Part shown: piece by piece, positions 12,952 to 56,230 of the stretch
How positions within the stretch are numbered: the first letter of the stretch is position 1
Layout of the letters: every line of letters starts with the position of its first letter
Assembly (NCBI GenBank): GCA_035326025.1
Contig: DAOKYT010000001.1
Coordinates: forward strand, 8,163-72,162
Source: Tepidiformaceae bacterium
GTDB lineage: Bacteria; Chloroflexota; Dehalococcoidia; Tepidiformales; Tepidiformaceae
Length of the DNA: 64,000 nt
Direction of reading: 5' to 3'
Position numbers and translations under genes: made by a program
The notes under the pieces: model-generated
Database searches by the model: none
Told to the model about the DNA's origin: nothing
Seen by the model: only the letters and a program-made list of their open reading frames with translations

Positions 12952-13947
12952 TCACGCAGCCGTTCGCACAAGCGCGACGGCGGTGCCGAGCCGTTCCGCA
13001 AGGGCCTCCGCGGTCTCGCTGATTCGGTGCCCGGTGACCAGGCCGCGCGCCTCGTAACCCGCCTTGCGGAGAATCGCGGCCCGGGTCGCGGCGCGTTCGA
13101 CACTTTCGGTGTTAACGGTGTGCGAGACCTCGACCGCGAAGAAGAGTTCGCGGGCGGTGTCGCGATCCCGGCCCTGCACCAGGAAGTCCAGCGCGGCAAT
13201 CTGCCGGACCTCGTCCTCGGTCACGAGCCCGCCCGCCAGCGCCTCGTCGAGCAGGGCCAGGTCGTCCACCAGCACTTTTCGCGGCCTCCGTGCCCATTCG
13301 CGCAGCCAGTTGCCCAGGTTGCGTTCGAACCTGGCCTCCAGGAGATCGCCGCGGATGTTCGCAAGTTCGCCGTCGACGCGATCCTGCCGCTCCACCATGG
13401 CACGTACCGCGGACGTGAGCTGATCCACCTGCTCGGCCAGCTGGTCGACGCGCCCGGTGAGCTGGTCCATCCGCACGGCCAGCTGATCGACGCGCCCGGT
13501 GAGCTGGTCCATGCGCTTGGCCAGCTGGTCGACGCGCTCGGTGAGCTGGTCCACCCGCACGGTGAGCTGCTCCATCCGCACGGCCAGCTGGTCGACGCGC
13601 TCGGTGAGCTGGTCCATCCGCTCGGCCAACTGATCGACGCGCCCGGTGAGCTGCTCCATCCGCACGGCCAGCTGGTCCATCCGCACGGCCAACTGGTCGA
13701 CGCGCTCGGTGAGCTGGTCGACGCGCCCGGTGAGCTGGTCCATCCGCACGGCCAGTTGCCCCATGCGCTCGCCGACCTGCTCCAATCGGTCCGCAACTCG
13801 GCCGAGCGTGCCCTCGACCCTGTCCATCCGCGAAGGGATCTCAAGGACTTGCTCCCCGAGAATCAGGGGCCGCAACTGGGCCCGCCACTCCGGGTGCTCG
13901 GAGAGGAGCCGCACAAGGTCTGTGAAGTCCGTCAGGGTGAATGCCAC
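12952..13947 (-). CDS. heptad-repeat (coiled-coil) protein with a nuclease-like C-terminal domain; function unknown
   Basis: 331 aa. N-terminus MAFTLTDFTDLVRLLSEHPEWRAQLRPL, then about 24 consecutive heptads of type R-[VM]-[DE]-Q-L-[TA]-x, then a C-terminal about 120 aa containing ..LDFLVQGRDRD..ELFFAVEVSH..VERAATRAAILRKAG. Lies 32 nt downstream of the radical-SAM gene on the same strand. Confidence 0.7.
   Translation of the reverse strand: MAFTLTDFTDLVRLLSEHPEWRAQLRPLILGEQVLEIPSRMDRVEGTLGRVADRLEQVGERMGQLAVRMDQLTGRVDQLTERVDQLAVRMDQLAVRMEQLTGRVDQLAERMDQLTERVDQLAVRMEQLTVRVDQLTERVDQLAKRMDQLTGRVDQLAVRMDQLTGRVDQLAEQVDQLTSAVRAMVERQDRVDGELANIRGDLLEARFERNLGNWLREWARRPRKVLVDDLALLDEALAGGLVTEDEVRQIAALDFLVQGRDRDTARELFFAVEVSHTVNTESVERAATRAAILRKAGYEARGLVTGHRISETAEALAERLGTAVALVRTAA
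13411..13767 (-). repeat. tandem 21-nt repeat array (about 17 near-identical units), in frame within the CDS
   Basis: On the + strand the unit reads (G/C)AGCTG(G/A)TC(G/C)A(C/T)(G/C)CGC(N)CGG(T/C), repeated head to tail. Degenerate copies extend the array to about 13327-13830. Confidence 0.9.
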
Positions 13948-25133: not shown

Positions 25134-25209
25134 TGGCGCCCCCGGCAGGATTCGAACCTGCGGCCAGACGCTTAGAAGGCGCCTGCTCTATCCCCTGAGC
25201 TACGGGGGC
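25134..25209 (-). tRNA. tRNA-Arg (anticodon TCT), CCA encoded
   Basis: The reverse complement GCCCCCGTAGCTCAGGGGATAGAGCAGGCGCCTTCTAAGCGTCTGGCCGCAGGTTCGAATCCTGCCGGGGGCGCCA folds as a cloverleaf. It has a 7-bp acceptor stem, anticodon loop CTTCTAA and T-loop GGTTCGAATCC. Confidence 0.9.
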
Positions 25210-31698: not shown

Positions 31699-32466
31699 AT
31701 GCCCATCCGAACTGAACGCCGCGACCGTACGCTCCTGGTCACGCTCGACCGACCCCACGCAATGAACAGCATCGACGCCGAAATGTACCGCCAACTCGGC
31801 GAAGTCTGGGACGAATTCGAGCGGGATGACACGCTGCTTGTGGCTGTGGTCACTGGCGCGGGAGAAAAGGCATTCTGCTCCGGCCGCGACCTGGTGAAGA
31901 GCGCCCAGGATGTCTCGAACGACTGGAGCCAGCAGCGTGGCGAGGGGAGGCTCACACCCGAGGGCATCTGGAAACCCGTCATCGCGGCGATCAACGGCCA
32001 CTGCCTGGCGGCCGGGCTCGCTCTCGCGCTCGGGTGCGACCTGCGTGTCGCGAGCCCCAACGCAACGTTCGGCACGATGGCCGCGAAACGGGGCATCGTG
32101 GCCGGTGGGGGCCAGACGCAGCGGCTGGCGCGCTACATCCCCTTCGGTATCGCCATGGAAATGATCCTCTTCGCCGAGCGTATCAGTGCCGAGGACGCGC
32201 TCCGCCACGGGCTGGTGAACCGTGTCGTGCCGCGGGAGGAGCTGCTGCCCTTCGCCCTCGGGTGGGCAGAGAAACTCTGCGAGAACGCCCCCCTGGCCGT
32301 CCAGGCAATGAAGCGCGCTGCCTACGAAGGTGGCTGGGATATGACCCTCAGCGAAGGCATGCGGCTCGAAGCGCGGCTCTACGCCGAGATCATGAAGACC
32401 GAAGACGCCGCCGAGGGAGGCCGCGCGTTCGCCGAAAAGCGCGCCCCCCGGTTCCAGGGGCGCTGA
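31699..32466 (+). CDS. enoyl-CoA hydratase/isomerase (crotonase) family protein
   Basis: Starts MPIRTERRDRTLLVTLDRPHAMNSID and contains ..VVTGAGEKAFCSGRDL..AAINGHCLAGGLALALGCD. Start trimmed from 31606. Confidence 0.85.
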   Translation: MPIRTERRDRTLLVTLDRPHAMNSIDAEMYRQLGEVWDEFERDDTLLVAVVTGAGEKAFCSGRDLVKSAQDVSNDWSQQRGEGRLTPEGIWKPVIAAINGHCLAAGLALALGCDLRVASPNATFGTMAAKRGIVAGGGQTQRLARYIPFGIAMEMILFAERISAEDALRHGLVNRVVPREELLPFALGWAEKLCENAPLAVQAMKRAAYEGGWDMTLSEGMRLEARLYAEIMKTEDAAEGGRAFAEKRAPRFQGR

Positions 32467-35146: not shown

Positions 35147-35584
35147 GTGTACGGATTCGTCAGCAGCGTCCTCGCCGAGAAGGGCCGCCAGGTCTACACG
35201 ATCTCCCGGACTGCCACCGTTTCGGAGGCGGTCTGCGAGATGAACGAGAAGGGGGTTGGCTCCCTGCTTGTCATCGATGGGCGCCACCCCGTGGGCATCT
35301 TCACCGAACGGGATGTCCTCCGCCGCATCGTCGACGCCGACCGCGATCCTGCCCTTACCCGCGTCGGCGAAGTGATGACCCGCGACCTCGCGGCGATCGA
35401 GCCGTCGTGGCATGTCGAAGACGCTATGCGGCTTATGACCGAAAGGCGCCTGCGCCACCTCCCCGTGATGGAAGGCGGCGAAGTTCTCGGCATGATCTCC
35501 ATCGGCGACCTTCTTCGCTGGGTCACCATCAACCAGGAAGATCAAATCCGTGCGATGACCGACTACATCACCGGCCGCGCCTGA
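35147..35584 (+). CDS. CBS-domain pair protein
   Basis: Two CBS motifs (..VGSLLVIDGRHPVGIFTERDVLRR.., ..LRHLPVMEGGEVLGMISIGDLLR). GTG 35147 lies 7 nt after AGGAGG; the ORF-track start at 35141 is too close to the RBS. Confidence 0.82.
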   Translation: MYGFVSSVLAEKGRQVYTISRTATVSEAVCEMNEKGVGSLLVIDGRHPVGIFTERDVLRRIVDADRDPALTRVGEVMTRDLAAIEPSWHVEDAMRLMTERRLRHLPVMEGGEVLGMISIGDLLRWVTINQEDQIRAMTDYITGRA

Positions 35585-35835
35585 ACCGTTTCACGTTCCA
35601 GGGTGTCGCCGCCCCGGCTGCGAAAGCGCCGGAAACCGCCAGGCTGCCCACCTGATTGCGTGCCCCCGGCACCCCTGAAGTGCGTCGCGGGACGTTCCCT
35701 TCGTCCGGGGTGTCGCCGCCGGGGCTGGCGTACCACCCGGCGCGTAGCTGCTCATCGTGGGTTGCCGCCGCCGGGAACGCCGGGAGCCCGGGCTATCCAC
35801 CTGCCAGGGGCCGCCAGGCTCGTGCTTGAGGAAGA

Positions 35836-36090
35836 TCACCTTCCGCTCGCCCGCCGCGAACTGGTGGCCGTCGCGGAAAGGCTCCTCGCGGGGACTGCCG
35901 GCCACCGCCGTGCAGGTTTCGCGGTTCTCGATGCGCGGAAGGACTCGCCCCCGGTGCCGCCCTGGATGTTCTCCTCCACGATGAAGGTGGCCTCACGCCG
36001 AGCGTCGAGGGCGTTCATCACCTCCGGCCGGCTCACGGTGATGGTTGCGACATGGTTATCCACCACCCACGAGATGAACTGCATGGTCAA
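35836..36090 (-). pseudogene. possible decayed gene: crotonase-like N-terminus that loses frame after about 50 codons
   Basis: MQFISWVVDNHVATITVSRPEVMNALD resembles an enoyl-CoA hydratase N-terminus, but the GxGxxFcxGxD region never follows. The G/C-at-position-3 signal switches to another frame near 35930 (..IENRETCTAVAGSPREEPFRDGHQFAAGERKVIFLKHEPGGPWQVD). Confidence 0.3.
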
Positions 36091-36473
36091 TTTTCGATTG
36101 CCGACTTCCGATTTCCGATTGACGCGCGCGCCTTCAGTGTGCGCTTGGATGCGACCGTCATCGCAAGGACCTCATCCGCCTCCTGACGGATTGGGGCGAC
36201 GCGCACTTCAGGGGCGAGTCCACTCGCGACCAGGACGTCCAGCCAGTACAGCGTTTCATCAGCCTCCTCCTCCACGATCCCAAGCTTGGCGATGAGGTCG
36301 TTCACAGACCGGGCTCTGCATGAGGCTCGGTAGTTTGCCCCGACCGAGGTGGCCGACCGAATGAGTTGCCGCGCTATGACGTCCGCAGAACGGGTCCTCG
36401 GCAGTTCGTCGCTCAGCCGGATCGCTGCAAGGCCGATGGCTGTAGCCCGTTTGATGAAGGTCTGCTCATCCAT
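36087..36473 (-). CDS. four-helix-bundle protein (23S rRNA intervening-sequence protein / Avd-like family)
   Basis: Starts MDEQTFIKRATAIGLAAIRLSDELPRTRSADVIARQLIRSATSVGANYRASCRARSVNDLIAKLGIVEEEADETLYWLDVL. The Q-L-x-R-[SA]-[AS]-x-S-x-x-x-N pattern followed by E-E-x-x-E-x-x-x-W is typical of PF05635/TIGR02436 as I recall it. The C-terminal residues ..SIGNRKSAIEN are translated repeat-arm sequence. Confidence 0.78.
   Translation of the reverse strand: MDEQTFIKRATAIGLAAIRLSDELPRTRSADVIARQLIRSATSVGANYRASCRARSVNDLIAKLGIVEEEADETLYWLDVLVASGLAPEVRVAPIRQEADEVLAMTVASKRTLKARASIGNRKSAIEN
36095..36121. repeat. inverted-repeat arm (tandem heptamers), 3' side of the 4HB gene
   Basis: CGATTGC CGACTTC CGATTTC CGATTG. 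Positions 36102-36121 are the perfect reverse complement of 36484-36503. Confidence 0.9.
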
Positions 36474-36483
36474 TTGACCACCC

Positions 36484-36518
36484 CAATCGGAAATCGGAAG
36501 TCGCCGAATCGGCAATCA
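36484..36518. repeat. inverted-repeat arm (tandem heptamers), 5' side of the 4HB gene
   Basis: CAATCGGAAATCGGAAGTCGCCGAATCGGCAATCA. It pairs with 36095-36121 (20 bp perfect, then a bulge, then GATTGCCG). It overlaps the stop codon (36516-36518) of the ThDP enzyme. Confidence 0.9.
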
Positions 36519-38162
36519 CTTGAATTCGTAGCCGCCCTTCACGCCGGCCGGCTCCGGGTCGGTCAGCACGTTCACGCACGCCGGCTTGCCGCTGTTGAAG
36601 GCTCGCTCGATCGCGGCCTTGATCTGCTCCGGGTGTTCCACCAGCTCGCCGTGCCCGCCAAGCCCTTCCACGACCTTGTCGTACCGCGCGTTGTCGCCGA
36701 GCACCGTCGCGGGCGTCCGGCCCTCGCCGTACTGCGCCTTCTGCCCGACATAAATCTGGTGCCAGCAGCGGTCGTTCCCGATGACCGACACGATCGGCAT
36801 CTTAAATCGCACGAAGGTATCGAAGTCGAAGCCGTTCAGCCCGAAGGTCCCGTCGCCATTCACCATCAGGACCTTCTTCTCCGGCACGGCCACGCTCGCC
36901 GCCATGCAGAAGCCCGTGCCGACCCCGAGGGTGCCGAAGGGGCCCGGGTCCATCCACTGGCCGGGGTTGTTCACGGGCAGCACGCTCGCCGCCAGGGCCA
37001 CGATATCGCCGCCATCACCGACGACGATCGTATCGTCGTCCACGAACTCGGCGATTTCCTTACACAGGCGAAGTGGATGGATCGGCACGGCATCCGAGTT
37101 CATGAACACTTCCCGCTGGGCGTCGGCCTGCCCTTCGAGCCCGCGCAAGTACTGCATCCACTCCGCGTGGTTGCCCTTGCCAATCTCCCCCGTGAGTTGC
37201 AACAGCGCCTGCCGGATGTTCGCCTCGATGCCGATAGAGAAATCCCGGTTCCGCCCGATATCGCGGGGGTCGATGTCGATCTGGATGACCTTCGCTTCCG
37301 GGTTCCACGCTGGCGGCTGGCCGTACTTCAGCCGGAAGTCGATCGGCGTCCCCAGGATCACGATCACGTCGGCCTGGGCGAATGCCGGCTTGCGCGAGAG
37401 CGAGAAGAAGTTCGGGTTGTCCTGTCGCAGTGTGCCGCGACCCATCGCGTTCGTGTACACCGGCACATCGGCCGCCTTCGCGAATTCCGCCAGTTCCTTG
37501 TGAGCGCGGTGCCAGAACACCCCCGACCCGGCCATCACCATCGGCTTCGATGCCCCCTTGATCATCGCCGCTGCCTGCCTGATCAGGTTCGGGTCGCCCA
37601 TGATTTCGCCGGTGGGCCGGTAGTTGGCCGGCCATACCACCGAATCCTCATCCACCCGCCCGAAGAGCACGTCCGAAGGCACCTGCAGGAACGTCGGCCC
37701 GTACCGCCCGGTCATCGCCTCGCGGAACGCCATCGCCATGTAGTAGGGCAGCCGGCGCGTCTCGTACACCGTCTGCGACCACTTCGTGATCGGCTGCATC
37801 ATGCCGCCGAGTTCGATGTCCTGGAGCGACCCCATGTCGTACTGGCGGAGCGGCGACCGCCCGCCAATGACTACCATCGGGCTCGATGCCTGGTAGGCAT
37901 TCGCGACCGCGGTCACCACATCGGTTACGCCCGGGCCGGCCGTCACCACAGCCACTCCCGGCTTGAACGTGATGCGCGAGTACCCGTCGGCCGCATGCCC
38001 GGCCGATTGCTCGTGCCGCGTGTCCACGATCCCGATGCCGTTGTTCAGGCAACCCTCGTAGATGTTCTGCACATGGCCGCCAGAGAGCGTAAAGATGTGG
38101 CCGATGCCTTCCTGCTTGATCATGCGCGCGATGATTTCGCCGCCGTCGATCATGTTTCCCAT
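36516..38162 (-). CDS. thiamine-diphosphate-dependent enzyme (acetolactate synthase large subunit / oxalyl-CoA decarboxylase / 2-hydroxyacyl-CoA lyase family)
   Basis: Start trimmed to [30 protein letters not shown] (GAGGAA RBS); the upstream 235 codons of the ORF-track frame are not protein-like. ThDP motif GDGGD..(x)..[12 protein letters not shown]-like region. 548 aa. Confidence 0.88.
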
Positions 38163-38273
38163 GGATGGGGTTCCTCGCGATTCGGTGAAAATGTGGGGCG
38201 AGTATAGCCGCGCCGGGCACGGGTGTCCGGGCTTGTCCTGTGGGAAAGTACCGGTAGGAGGGAACGGAATACC

Positions 38274-38558
38274 GTGAGTCATACCAGGGTCGCCATCTCG
38301 CTCCCGGACGGGATATTCGAGCAGCTCCGGCAGTACGCCGCCGATGCCGCGTTGCCCAGGAGCACAGTCGTGGCACGCGCACTCGCCGCGTATTTCGACA
38401 GGTGCGACGCCATCGCATTCGAGCGCCAGATGGACGAGACGTGGTCCGGACTCTCGGAGGCCGAGGTCGAGGCGGAGCTCGAACCCCTCCGCTCCGCCGG
38501 GCGCTCTTTGCATCGCCGGCTTGCCGCCCTGGAGCAGGTCCCGTGGGAGGCGAACTGA
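38274..38558 (+). CDS. ribbon-helix-helix (CopG/MazE-like) antitoxin
   Basis: VSHTRVAISLPDGIFEQLRQYAADAALPRSTVVARALAAYF has the RHH beta-alpha-alpha pattern. GTG 38274 lies after AGGAGGG. The 3' end overlaps the toxin start. Confidence 0.62.
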   Translation: MSHTRVAISLPDGIFEQLRQYAADAALPRSTVVARALAAYFDRCDAIAFERQMDETWSGLSEAEVEAELEPLRSAGRSLHRRLAALEQVPWEAN

Positions 38559-38901
38559 AACAGGGCGAGGTCTGGTGGGTTGACGACTCAGAGCCCCGGG
38601 GTTCCGAGCCGGGGTACCGGCGCCCCTGGGCTGGGCGTGCAGAACAACCGCACCAACGCCACGGCTATCCGCACGGTGCTCATGCGTCCCCTTACCACCA
38701 AACGGCACACGGCACGGGCTCCCGGGAACGTCCTCCTCGCCGATGGTGAGGCGGGCCTTTCGCGCGAGAGTGTCGTCGTTGTCTCGGGGCTCAGCGCCCA
38801 TGATCGCCAGCAACTGGATGAGCTGATGGGGGAGCCCGGCCAGGCTCGGCCAGGTTCTCTCCGGCATTGTCCTGCTGCTCGAACCCCATGACGACCTCTG
38901 A
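38543..38901 (+). pseudogene. mazF: MazF/PemK-family toxin disrupted by two +1 frameshifts
   Basis: Three consecutive frames each carry a collinear MazF-like piece. They are VGGELKQGEVWWVDDSEPRGSEPGYRRP (to about 38626); GLGVQNNRTNATAIRTVLMRPLTTKRHTARAPGNVLLADGEAGLSRESVVVVSGLSAHDRQQLDELMG (to about 38831); and SPARLGQVLSGIVLLLEPHDDL* (stop at 38899-38901). The second shift lies in a GGGGG run. Removing 2 nt gives a 118-aa ORF. Confidence 0.6.
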
Positions 38902-39623: not shown

Positions 39624-39879
39624 GTGGTCCTCAATCTACCGTGCCGAAAGGGGCCCTGTCGCGCCTCTTGACGCTTGCGAACCCTGAGCGAAGATGCCGG
39701 GAGCGACACCAATCGCGACGCCTAGTCCGCTTCGGCGGGACGGGGGACCCAGTTCTCGGGGCGAATTCGCAAGGGCGGCTTCCCGGTGGGAGCCGGCGAC
39801 GGCGAAACGGCTATCTCCGGCCGTAGCCCGGCAGCTAACCTCGGCGGCGTGGGAAGACCTCATTCGAGGCCTCCTGTCC

Positions 39880-45494: not shown

Positions 45495-45518
45495 GCGCAC
45501 CTGGTGCTCGTCATCCGA

Positions 45519-45595
45519 ATCGCTTTCCTCCGCACGTATGAACGTGGTCAGGTTCAAGGGGTCTGATCTCAGCCCATCAGGGCACCCCCAGCGAT
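45519..45595 (-). promoter_or_regulatory. TPP (THI-box) riboswitch aptamer
   Basis: The minus strand reads AUCGCU GGGGUGCCC ugau GGGCUGAGA ucag ACCCCUUGAACCUGA CCACG uucaua CGUG CGGAGGAAAGCGAU. It has the P1 helix AUCGCU/AGCGAU, the CUGAGA and ACCUGA boxes, and the GGAGG(A)AA pyrophosphate-sensing end. Confidence 0.88.
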
Positions 45596-45794
45596 CCCGA
45601 ACAGCTGTGAAATTGTCGATCCTTACGCTACACCCGCCGCGCGGCTGGCTGCAATCACCGGCCCGGTTACCCGGGTGTCACGCAGCTCTCACGCTCGTCC
45701 ACCCGCTGGCGACCCTCGGCTACCCTGCCATCAACGATAATCGGCCCGCGGGCGCCGCGTTACGCGCCGCCGGAATCAACTCGGCCGGGAGAGC

Positions 45795-54679: not shown

Positions 54680-55738
54680 ATGCCTGATCGAGATCCGCGT
54701 ATCGAGAGCCTGCGCACCGAGGCGCTGGCAGCGCTCGCCTCGGCTTCCGACGAAGCCGGGCTGGAGCAGTGGCGCATCACCTATTTCGGTCGCCAGGATG
54801 GCCGGGTGAGCGCGCTCCTCCGATCGATCAAGGATGTCCCGGCCAGCCAGCGCGCGGCCTTTGGCGCCGCCGCGAACGCCGCCAGGGCCGAGCTTGAAGC
54901 CGCCTTCGATGCCCGCCGCGATGAGCTCAAGCGAGCGGCCCTGGAAGCGCTCACCACCCGGGCCGCCCTCGACGTCACCCTGCCCGGCAGGCCTCAGCCC
55001 CTTGGCCGCCTTCACCCGGTGACGCAGACCATGCGCGATTGCCTTGCCGCCTTCAGGGAGATGGGCTTCCGTGTCGCCGAAGGCCCCGAGGTCGAGTGGG
55101 CCCGCTATAACTTCGATGCCGCCCGCATTCCCGAGGATCACCCCGCCCGCGACATGTGGGACACCATCTGGGTGAACACGCTCGTCGATGGGCAGCGCAA
55201 CATGCTCCTTCGCACGCACACCACACCGAACCAGATCCGGGTGATGGAACGCACACCGGAACCACCGGTGCGCGTCGTGGTGCCCGGCAAGTGCTACCGC
55301 CAGGAAGCCACCGACGCGACGCACGAGTGGATGCTCACCCAGATCGAGGGCCTGGCGGTCGACGAAGGGGTCCGCCTGACGGACCTTAAGGGCGTGCTCT
55401 ACGGCTGGGCCCGCAAGATGTTCGGCGCCGACCGCAAGATCATCTTCCACCACAGTTACTTCCCCTTCGTCGAGCCCGGCATCGAGATGGCGATCGACTG
55501 CTTCATCTGCCGTGGCAATGGGGCCTCCTGCCACACCTGCCACGGCACCGGCTGGATCGAGATCCTTGGCGCCGGGATGGTCCACCCCGAAATCATCGAT
55601 AACGCCGGCTACGACTCCTCCCGGGTGACCGGTTTCGCATTTGGCGTTGGCGTCGAACGCGTCGCCCTCCTCCGCTGGGGCATCGAAGACATCCGGAACT
55701 TCTACGCAAACGACATCCGCTTCCTGAGCCAGTTTTAG
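54680..55738 (+). CDS. pheS: phenylalanine--tRNA ligase alpha subunit
   Basis: Starts MPDRDPRIESLR... Contains HPARDMWDT, LLRTHTTPNQIR, and FPFVEPG..GAGMVHP class II motifs. Start trimmed from ORF-track 54002. Confidence 0.95.
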   Translation: MPDRDPRIESLRTEALAALASASDEAGLEQWRITYFGRQDGRVSALLRSIKDVPASQRAAFGAAANAARAELEAAFDARRDELKRAALEALTTRAALDVTLPGRPQPLGRLHPVTQTMRDCLAAFREMGFRVAEGPEVEWARYNFDAARIPEDHPARDMWDTIWVNTLVDGQRNMLLRTHTTPNQIRVMERTPEPPVRVVVPGKCYRQEATDATHEWMLTQIEGLAVDEGVRLTDLKGVLYGWARKMFGADRKIIFHHSYFPFVEPGIEMAIDCFICRGNGASCHTCHGTGWIEILGAGMVHPEIIDNAGYDSSRVTGFAFGVGVERVALLRWGIEDIRNFYANDIRFLSQF

Positions 55739-55743
55739 GAGCT

Positions 55744-55770
55744 GTTGGCCGTTGGCTATTGGCCGTTAGC
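55744..55770. repeat. inverted-repeat arm (tandem heptamers), 5' side of the 4HB gene in the pheS-pheT spacer
   Basis: GTTGGCC GTTGGCT ATTGGCC GTTAGC begins 6 nt after the pheS stop. Confidence 0.88.
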
Positions 55771-55786
55771 AAGGAGCACAGGCTTT

Positions 55787-56230
55787 ATGCGACCGTTTCG
55801 GGAACTCAGAGTCTGGGAGGAATCCCATCAGCTCACCCTTGATGTTTACCGCGCGACGGGCTTGTTCCCGAATGACGATCGCTTTGCGCTGACGAGTCAA
55901 CTGCGCCGCGTTGCATATTCCGCGCCGTCTAACGTCGTCGAGGGCACATCGAGGGGAGACACGGAGTGCCGTCAGTTTCTCAGAGTTGCGCTCGGTTCTG
56001 CAGCCGAGCTGGAGCACGGCCTTCCTCTTGCGCGCGACATTGGCTACCTCGCCAACGCAGAACACGACTCCCTCACCGCAAGGACTCTGACTGTCAAACG
56101 GATGCTGAACGCCTTCATCGCCCGCATGAACGCAACTATCGATTCCCGCGCCAACAAGCTGCCCGTGGCCGGTAGCCAGCAGCCAGCGGCCAACGGCCAA
56201 CGGCCCGGCACGATGGAGCCGGCACCATGA
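55787..56230 (+). CDS. four-helix-bundle protein (23S rRNA intervening-sequence protein / Avd-like family)
   Basis: AAGGAG RBS. MRPFRELRVWEESHQLTLDVYRATGLFPNDDRFALTSQLRRVAYSAPSNVVEGTSRGDTECRQFLRVALGSAAELEHGL matches the PF05635/TIGR02436 pattern as I recall it. The C-terminal tail ..PVAGSQQPAANGQRPG.. is translated repeat-arm sequence. The stop overlaps the pheT ATG (ATGA). Confidence 0.8.
   Translation: MRPFRELRVWEESHQLTLDVYRATGLFPNDDRFALTSQLRRVAYSAPSNVVEGTSRGDTECRQFLRVALGSAAELEHGLPLARDIGYLANAEHDSLTARTLTVKRMLNAFIARMNATIDSRANKLPVAGSQQPAANGQRPGTMEPAP
56171..56201. repeat. inverted-repeat arm (tandem heptamers), 3' side of the 4HB gene
   Basis: The reverse complement reads GTTGGCC GTTGGCC GCTGGCT GCTGGCT ACC. 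13 nt (56189-56201) are perfectly complementary to 55744-55756, and the extension pairs with mostly G-U wobbles. Confidence 0.88.

Follow-up and report, generated by a model that had tools for sequence, protein, structure and literature searches.

What is a small gene with mirrored repeat arms doing in the exact gap between two metabolic genes? The question is raised by a stretch of 64,000 nucleotides from a Tepidiformaceae bacterium (contig DAOKYT010000001.1; hereafter the window, with positions counted from its first letter), in which an insert of 432 nt on the minus strand (36087-36518) exactly fills the junction of a gene for a thiamine diphosphate (ThDP)-dependent enzyme and a gene for enoyl-CoA hydratase. 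The insert carries a four-helix-bundle (4HB) gene between two inverted arms, and a preliminary description, made from the letters alone, had taken it for a member of a family of structured, junction-seeking elements. Our analyses supported that proposal beyond the window and added a kinship that it had missed, namely to the S23p-type intervening sequences (IVSs) of 23S rRNA, for which heptamers and RNase III cleavage are already published (PMC4990558). With high confidence, the feature is an S23p-type IVS-like 4HB cassette that resides in a protein-coding operon; as it is not located in rRNA, it is called IVS-like here and not an IVS.

The anatomy of the cassette (Table 1) agrees in most respects with what had been described. 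On the minus strand, TGATTGCCGATTCGGCGACTTCCGATTTCCGATTG precedes an open reading frame (ORF) of 128 codons, the end of which reads ...CAATCGGAAATCGGAAGTCGGCAATCGAAAATTGA. A repeat finder returned the inverted repeat I1, in which 36102-36121 and 36484-36503 are complementary over 20 nt (100%) with a spacing of 362 nt, and an outer helix of 6 bp (GATTGC at 36096-36101 with GCAATC at 36512-36517) follows across an 8-nt bulge. The perfect 20-bp match and the second block beyond a bulge were therefore found where they had been placed, around the minus-strand ORF at 36473-36087. The outer helix reaches the TGA of the ThDP gene (36516-36518, minus), with which the first 5'-arm unit shares its GA, so the reported overlap of the upstream arm with this stop codon also stands. 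Tandem Repeats Finder assigned period 7 to both arms, as had been claimed (36090-36120, 4.4 copies, ATTTCCG; 36484-36517, 4.7 copies). Apart from these, arrays with period 7 and at least 2.7 copies occur in the 64-kb window solely as the arms of a second cassette, at the junction of pheS and pheT. Three occurrences of the arm pattern were counted in the window where 0.05 would be expected, a number that none of 100 shuffles reached. The 3' arm lies within the last 35 nt of the 4HB ORF and is translated into the tail ..SIGNRKSAIEN, in line with the earlier reading. One detail has to be corrected: the 4HB stop codon had been said to overlap the start of the next ORF as TTGA, whereas the actual start is the ATG at 36082-36084, 2 nt past the 4HB stop.

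Stand-alone members of the PF05635 family have, to our knowledge, no known role. The 4HB ORF belongs to this family, as had been predicted, with a match above the curated cut-off (E = 2.3e-14, 53.9 bits, cut-off 33.8), and it also matches TIGR02436, "four helix bundle protein" (E = 3.9e-20, 72.1 bits, cut-off 24). An AlphaFold2 monomer model (predicted local distance difference test score, pLDDT, 92.5) consists of four helices. When this model was searched with Foldseek, the matches were 2RLD (TMt 0.89) and 2GSC (TMt 0.84), followed by Avd (4DWL) and a ribonucleoprotein of a diversity-generating retroelement (DGR), 8UB7, with a TM-score of 0.72-0.84 and a probability of 1.0; a profile search of Protein Data Bank sequences found 2RLD at 3.7e-27. 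Avd is essential for DGRs. Five chains are present in the crystals of both relatives, 2RLD and 2GSC, the latter being the Xanthomonas family member and described as a homopentamer (PMC4990558). In the Avd pentamer, all five protomers touch an RNA stem-loop (bioRxiv 10.1101/2023.10.23.563531), and this contact by the Avd barrel offers a precedent for the recognition of a repeat by the shared four-helix-bundle fold.

The likeness of fold to 4DWL and 8UB7, together with the report that PF05635 ranks first among the Pfam families found near DGR reverse transcriptases (PMC10053308), would allow the 4HB protein to be the Avd accessory subunit of such a retroelement, but we find this hardly credible. 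No reverse transcriptase was present among the called genes within +/-4 kb at 20 syntenic loci, where the neighbours are metabolic genes; no template/variable repeat was seen nearby (no genome-wide repeat search was made); identity to Avd is 12%, below sequence detection, and the sequence-level searches fell short of Avd; and no PADLOC defence-system model matched the cassette. We also know of no report of Avd genes inside heptamer-armed inverted repeats.

S23p-type IVSs have been described in the 23S rRNA of Leptospira, Coxiella burnetii and Brucella (Ralph & McClelland 1993; Afseth 1995; Warrier 2016, PMC4990558). The Coxiella IVS measures 428-444 nt and holds a sense-oriented S23p (PF05635) ORF within a 28-bp terminal stem; copies of the heptamer GACAGAT, two to three according to the strain plus one degenerate, stand just upstream of the start codon, and RNase III cuts mid-stem at the first repeat (PMC4990558). 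The window cassette is similar in its protein family, in its size (432 nt), in terminal inverted repeats that would form a stem of 20-30 bp around a sense-oriented ORF (helices of 20 bp and 6 bp here), in tandem heptameric direct repeats that occupy the 5' arm shortly before the start codon, in its sporadic occurrence among close relatives, and in the dependence of its expression on host transcription. In contrast to the IVSs, it sits between two protein-coding operon genes and not in rRNA helix 9, 25 or 45, and its heptamer is GATTTCC and not GACAGAT. In addition, the window ORF is under purifying selection, with a Shine-Dalgarno-like leader intact inside the loop, whereas the Coxiella ORF is decaying. 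RNase III cleavage has been demonstrated for the IVS and is presumed for the cassette. An Rfam scan found no rRNA in the window, and none of the 80 family loci sampled below had the conserved 23S motif near helix 45 in a crude one-motif screen, which is not an rRNA scan; thus, the comparison draws on the published Coxiella description.

Are such arms peculiar to this locus? The family is large, with at least 7,983 matches in a word-indexed search and 23,323 cluster representatives (50% identity) in a profile search at E <= 1e-3. Eighty loci were sampled from about a dozen phyla, among them Chloroflexota, Cyanobacteriota, Acidobacteriota, Verrucomicrobiota, Planctomycetota, Bacteroidota, Pseudomonadota, Desulfobacterota, Armatimonadota, Gemmatimonadota and WOR-3, and the 150 nt 5' of each start codon were aligned (Smith-Waterman) to the reverse complement of the stop-codon region. 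Inverted arms were detected in about 70 of the 80 loci, with scores of 27-67 against a shuffled mean of about 16 and a shuffled maximum of about 25. Among 82 arms of each side, a period of 7 outperformed periods of 6, 8 and 9 in 67 (5') and 69 (3'), and the arms hold a median of 4.3 copies (interquartile range 3.6-4.6). Read on the coding strand, upstream units have the form GATTnnn and downstream units nnnAATC, with fixed polarity (for example GATTTCG, GATTTTA, GATTGCG, GATTTAC, GATTGCC and GAGTGCG). Within the sampled loci, 78% of the period-7 arrays fall in the 15.5% of sequence adjoining 4HB genes, an enrichment of about 19-fold. The idea of a family of such elements, first put forward from the two cassettes of the window, is thus borne out by mirrored heptamer arms throughout most of the sample. 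In three Terriglobia loci (L098, L082 and L095), the mirrored arms are built of 8-nt units (ATCGGGTG/ATCGGGTC), indicating that the period is not absolutely fixed at 7.

The two arms of a cassette also match each other in detail. Variant units are mirrored position by position, and the observed order of units was the best possible in 21 of 24 loci; this order permutation test replaced a register-shift test, which was dropped as biased because the best register is preselected. Whether the arms covary so as to preserve pairing, a question already raised in the preliminary description, was examined in an arm alignment of 29 register-aligned cassettes. In total, 91.5% of the cells were paired, and changes on both sides were present in 16 of 21 pairs. 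The doubly changed cells numbered 135, compared with 43 +/- 5 in shuffles (0 of 500 shuffles reached the observed value), and pairing fell to 22-51% when the partner arm was slid by 1-3 columns. Across cassettes, the complementarity of the arms is thus conserved and covaries; given also the further copies and the PF05635 match, none of the three refuting conditions set in the preliminary description applies.

Two plasmids from different phyla, L145 (Ca. Chlorohelix, NZ_CP128402.1) and L146 (Gloeocapsa PCC 7428, NC_019759.1), carry a 4HB cassette at about 1800-2500 between the same two genes, which encode a DUF1156 protein and a Swt1-family HEPN protein and by appearance form a defence-type operon. 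In the Gloeocapsa plasmid a GATTTTA unit contains the upstream stop codon, TAG; in the Chlorohelix plasmid composite hairpin modules are directly repeated on either side of the ORF.

How stable is the cassette at its own junction? The host lineage belongs to uncultured Chloroflexi and occurs in sludge and wastewater metagenomes. In a sister lineage (L001-L010), a cassette with 84% protein identity occupies the same junction, followed by an intact enoyl-CoA hydratase of 262 aa. Between the window and L001, the ratio of nonsynonymous to synonymous substitution rates (dN/dS) is 0.096 for the 4HB ORF, at dS of about 1.0, and 0.042 for the ThDP gene. The 5' arm and leader are identical at 42 of 45 positions, the leader itself (36474-36483) being unchanged, while just 53% of third codon positions are identical. 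This low dN/dS, combined with the conservation of the arm above that of third positions, shows that both the 4HB protein and the arms are under purifying selection. One difference between the arms is compensatory (GATTGC/GCAATC in the window, GATTTC/GAAATC in L001).

A metagenome scan with the ThDP enzyme as query yielded 29 orthologous loci with 86-95% identity, and a 4HB gene was present in only two of them, L103 of the sister lineage and L113, about 24 being empty. In five empty loci the enoyl-CoA hydratase gene follows immediately 3', the junction reading TTCAAG-TAG-(32 nt)-ATG. The 4HB gene of L113 is a different one (52% identical; PF05635 at 7.9e-15; arm unit GATTTTG) at the same junction of ThDP stop and enoyl-CoA hydratase start. 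Orthologous ThDP loci, the comparison of which had been suggested earlier, are thus mostly empty, and one of them holds another member of the family. In a neighbour-joining tree of the ThDP genes (without bootstrap values), L113 is far from the clade of the window and L001, and the empty loci L101 and L126 are nested inside that clade. These positions imply that the cassette was gained at least twice at one junction or was exchanged there, and that it was lost from, or is absent in, close relatives. Loci L114 and L127 lack a 4HB gene and contain TGATTTTCGAG...GCGGATTTCGGC and TGATTTCCGGTTGAGG directly after the ThDP stop (first 50 nt), which may be scars of a lost arm. In addition, other contigs from the DNA metagenome runs X13 and X2 match the 3' arm alone (window 36088-36122, at least 90%) and then continue into unrelated sequence, implying that a GATTTCC-type arm is present at other loci or in other genomes of those samples.

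The boundaries of the insert are exact. The three occupied lineages agree in the residue at which the ThDP protein ends and in its stop codon, TGA, the GA of which opens the first heptamer (T-GATT...). A TGA stands at both element boundaries in 3 of 3 occupied ThDP loci, and in L001 it is followed at the second boundary by GCC, as is the stop codon at empty sites. This arrangement hints at insertion at the stop codon with a 3-nt duplication. However, both TGAs are functional stop codons and the pheST cassette has no such duplication; because of the former, a target duplication is treated here as a lead.

An ordinary conserved small gene with slippage-prone flanking repeats, in which no element exists and the arms have no function, would be one alternative. 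In many bacteria there is an excess of heptamer simple repeats, the lengths of which change by slippage (PMC4692102), and heptamer copy number differs among Coxiella strains (PMC4990558). In particular, Rehm et al. (2015) counted 186 GGGAATC arrays in Xanthomonas campestris, with a mode of four units, of which 70 form convergent inverted pairs, and also found GGGGATT arrays in Nostoc; they viewed these as simple repeats that form G-quadruplexes and did not connect them with 4HB genes (PMC4692102). Those heptamers share with the cassette arms the 7-nt period and the GATT/AATC core, GGGAATC being the reverse complement of GATTCCC and (GGGGATT)n being (GATTGGG)n in another phase, as well as arrays of about four units, a mostly intergenic location, and positions kept between species while lengths vary. 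Slippage beside an ordinary gene is nevertheless very improbable as an account of the cassettes, given the mirror arms of fixed polarity with variant units matched by position, the conservation of the arms above synonymous sites, the joint gain and loss of arms and ORF at an otherwise conserved junction, and the enrichment of period-7 arrays beside 4HB genes.

The placement between a stop and a start codon is also a property of the family. In 42 of 56 loci, as judged by a crude longest-ORF rule, the cassette is preceded by an ORF of its own strand, the stop codon of which mostly lies -2 to +6 nt from the arm start (for example ...TGA followed by TTTCGGATTTCGG, TAA by TTTCGGATTTGCG and TAG by ATTGCCGATTGCC). 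For 10 of 31 loci the stop codon and the repeat share a phase, compared with one in seven expected (p = 0.009). Where the downstream ORF is on the same strand, its first start codon is -5 to +11 nt from the end of the 3' arm in about half of the loci. In approximately 20 of 56 cases the 4HB ORF continues through the 3' arm and stops either within 12 nt of the downstream start or in an overlap with it (ATGA), which gives rise to repeat-encoded tails such as ..NRKSEIENRK. The characterization of the elements as junction-seeking, made at first from two insertions, therefore extends to the sampled loci.

Such positions would be expected if the stem served mainly as a translational relay or insulator that preserves the coupling of the host genes across the 430-nt insert, with the host stop at the 5' base of the stem and the host start at its 3' base, and with terminating ribosomes either melting the stem, so that the downstream start site becomes free, or being carried on by the 4HB ORF. 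Consistent with this, both distances are short, the read-through ORFs end at the downstream start, the window junction is TGA-CC-ATG, the pheT junction is an ATGA overlap, and the ThDP enzyme keeps its exact C-terminus. This support is purely positional, however, and the downstream gene of the window lineage has decayed, yet the cassette and its arms are conserved; coupling thus cannot be what maintains the window cassette. A relay would also leave the same element in rRNA and the 7-nt period unexplained, and we consider it quite unlikely as the main function of the stem.

The cassette is transcribed. In the region 35500-38600, the only promoter-like site is at 38229-38201, upstream of the ThDP gene, and no promoter-like or terminator-like site of the cassette's own was found in a scan limited to sigma-70-type consensus, which suggests that it is transcribed within the host operon. 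RNA contigs from four independent metatranscriptomes cover only the cassette, and two of them extend 34-51 nt into the 3' end of the ThDP gene, indicating co-transcription. The RNA runs contain 0.20-0.61 of the sampled words of the cassette, compared with at most 0.23 (mostly at most 0.06) of those of the ThDP gene. In the minimum-free-energy RNA fold, the 3' arm pairs with the 5' arm and closes a long-range stem (-192 kcal/mol, z = -2.6); no Rfam family matches the cassette at the gathering threshold or at E <= 10.

On these grounds we favour the following explanation. The cassette would be a selfish insert of about 430 nt, homologous in build to the S23p-type IVSs and co-transcribed with the host operon. 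In the transcript, its arms, four to five GATTnnn heptamers and their exact mirror, would pair into a stem of 20-30 bp that loops out the 4HB gene, and the base of the stem would bring the host stop codon beside the host start codon. A stem of 20-30 bp is a standard substrate of RNase III. By analogy with the rRNA IVSs, RNase III would cut this stem and free the 4HB message; such cutting would clear the insert from the ribosome in rRNA and would render it tolerable in operons. Those 4HB ORFs that read through the arm and end in an ATGA overlap may hand ribosomes to the downstream gene. The 4HB protein, a relative of the pentameric, RNA-binding Avd barrel, could in turn bind the heptamer stem with approximately one unit per protomer. 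We regard the case for this RNase III and insulation mechanism as evenly balanced, and our confidence in any particular mechanism of mobility is low.

Several observations weigh against this explanation. The inner stem of L001 has two mismatches, which are tolerated. G:U pairs are not enriched in the arm alignment, 11 of 63 non-Watson-Crick cells being the chance level, and wobble mismatches are equally frequent in sense and antisense (41 vs 47); with neither wobble enrichment nor strand asymmetry, the claim for an RNA stem is lowered. A stem by itself leaves the 7-nt periodicity and the conserved GATT core unexplained. The excision by RNase III without re-ligation that is typical of IVSs would agree with the enrichment of metatranscriptome contigs over the cassette, but these are low-depth contigs and not reads, of which two run uncut across the 5' arm; in the same RNA runs, the pheST cassette shows no RNA excess. 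Moreover, the Coxiella ORF loses its Shine-Dalgarno region when the IVS is excised, and it seems that no S23p is produced (PMC4990558).

Part of this evidence speaks for, or at least permits, the reading of the cassette as a DNA-level element. The arms would then be terminal inverted repeats (TIRs) or recognition arrays, bound either by the 4HB pentamer, with possible recruitment of a nuclease, recombinase or polymerase of the host, or by some host enzyme on its own; the cassette would be moved or copied as DNA, and RNA pairing would be incidental. The complementarity is solely of the Watson-Crick type, and the position-for-position mirroring of variant units is what copying predicts; mirror symmetry is probably kept by DNA-level copying or conversion rather than by RNA-level compensation. 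Presence/absence polymorphism, the second family member at the same ThDP junction, the convergent pairing of 70 of the 186 Xanthomonas arrays (PMC4692102) and the boundary TGAs, which could be a 3-bp target duplication, point in the same direction. So do two ORF-less hairpins (L073 638-735 and L036 123-194), in which about four units, a loop of 20-35 nt and four mirrored units fill gene junctions; their unit is that of the local cassette, and they look like non-autonomous cassette derivatives, related to cassettes as MITEs (miniature transposable elements with inverted repeats) are to transposons. On the other hand, no catalytic site is known for the 4HB fold, the genes called within +/-4 kb include no transposase, integrase or reverse transcriptase, and the boundary TGAs double as functional stops and have no counterpart in the pheST cassette. 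Excision joints were not seen in four DNA metagenomes, although contigs drop rare variants and this result is hence uninformative. Copies within one genome are also highly diverged, as the two cassettes of the window illustrate (18% protein identity). We regard a DNA-level element as doubtful but with a real chance of being correct; it is compatible with the pairing and cutting of the transcript that we favour.

The cassettes resemble MITEs, TIR transposons and repetitive extragenic palindromic (REP) or bacterial interspersed mosaic (BIME) elements in being short, bounded by inverted repeats, intergenic and polymorphic between relatives, and in having ORF-less derivatives. Unlike MITEs and TIR transposons, they have no transposase nearby and no clear target-site duplication, their arms are internally tandem-repetitive, their copies within a genome are highly diverged and not near-identical, and their cargo is a conserved non-catalytic protein. 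An integron gene cassette was also considered and rejected, as the arms are on both sides of the ORF, the cassettes are single in housekeeping operons, and no integrase was called nearby. The hairpin of L073 stops 2 nt short of a CheA-like gene's ATG, and an ATCCGAA array of about four copies (L073 1394-1423) is in frame within the CheA-like coding sequence, showing that heptamer repeats can also sit inside genes as translated linkers.

Taken together, the same build around the 4HB family in about a dozen phyla points to a widespread, little-described selfish element. We found no heptamer-armed 4HB cassette outside rRNA or at operon junctions in the literature, in a search that left subscription journals mostly uncovered, so that a prior description is possible; nothing in the searchable literature appears to describe the heptamer arms across the family, the placement from stop to start, the polymorphism or the mini-derivatives. 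In a broader proposal, the PF05635 cassettes would be the autonomous members of a large, unrecognized class of mobile elements, whose pentamer would read the arm heptamers one per protomer and, with host enzymes, would spread cassettes and ORF-less hairpins to operon junctions, at sites near stop codons, and to rRNA helices. We put this forward as speculation that is unlikely to hold. If true, it would explain the origin of the S23p-type rRNA IVSs, the over-representation of heptamers in Xanthomonas and Nostoc, and the ancestry of Avd. The nature of the IVSs that fragment 23S rRNA and the role of their conserved S23p ORF have been a standing question since 1993, and these IVSs, the genome-wide heptamer excess and the stand-alone Avd relatives in the 50%-identity clusters may be facets of one element. 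Instances are available in culturable organisms, including Nostoc, Bacteroides thetaiotaomicron (BT_0352), Xanthomonas (XCC0516) and the Chlorohelix plasmids. Cassette and arms are also worth annotating as a unit, since they interrupt operons, extend proteins by translated repeat tails and may be confused with commonplace intergenic repeats.

Table 1. The cassette, its host genes and the second cassette in the 64,000-nt window
Feature	Position	Strand	Details
5' arm	36484..36518	minus	T-GATTGCC GATTCGGC GACTTCC GATTTCC GATTG (cassette-transcript sense)
Leader, 5' arm to start codon	36474..36483	minus	Shine-Dalgarno-like GGGTGG at 36478-36483
4HB gene	36087..36473	minus	128 aa; ATG 36471-36473, TGA 36087-36089
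3' arm	36095..36121	minus	CAATCGG AAATCGG AAGTCGG CAATCG
ThDP-dependent enzyme, upstream host gene	36516..38162	minus	548 aa, acetolactate synthase / 2-hydroxyacyl-CoA lyase-like; TPP_enzyme_N/M/C domains and NCBIfam matches
Enoyl-CoA hydratase remnant, downstream host gene	36004..36084	minus	first 27 codons only; starts 2 nt past the 4HB stop
Second cassette, pheS/pheT junction	55741..56230	plus	pheS stop 55736-55738, pheT ATG 56227; arms 55741-55770 and 56175-56205, unit GTTGGCC

Among the host genes, the ThDP gene contributes its stop codon as the first triplet of the element. The next ORF had appeared decayed in the preliminary description, and we could identify it as an enoyl-CoA hydratase gene, the 27 remaining codons of which align to the intact L001 orthologue; about 500 bp are gone (window 35590-36084, minus). 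The TGA-CC-ATG of the window corresponds to TGA GCC ATG in the relatives (L001). An intact enoyl-CoA hydratase paralogue is located at 31705-32460 on the plus strand. The second cassette, likewise reported before as a heptamer-armed 4HB insertion at a gene junction with a divergent protein, has its ORF at 55787-56230 (plus; PF05635, E = 4.4e-27), which ends in the overlap with pheT, and its arm unit differs from that of the first.

A PemK-type toxin/antitoxin pair adjoins the ThDP gene (window 38223-38891, plus). The PemK toxin gene was called in L013, L014 and L016 and not in L011 and L012, and the toxin frame of the window is apparently split over two frames. Elsewhere in the window, a tandem array at 13408-13755 has nested periods of 21, 63, 84 and 105 nt, with 16 copies of the 21-nt unit at 72-86% matches, and is probably a repetitive coding region. 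Rfam and ARAGORN also identified ordinary features: a c-di-AMP riboswitch at 39709-39860 (plus), a thiamine pyrophosphate (TPP) riboswitch at 45508-45599 (minus) and a tRNA-Arg(TCT) gene at 25134-25209 (minus).

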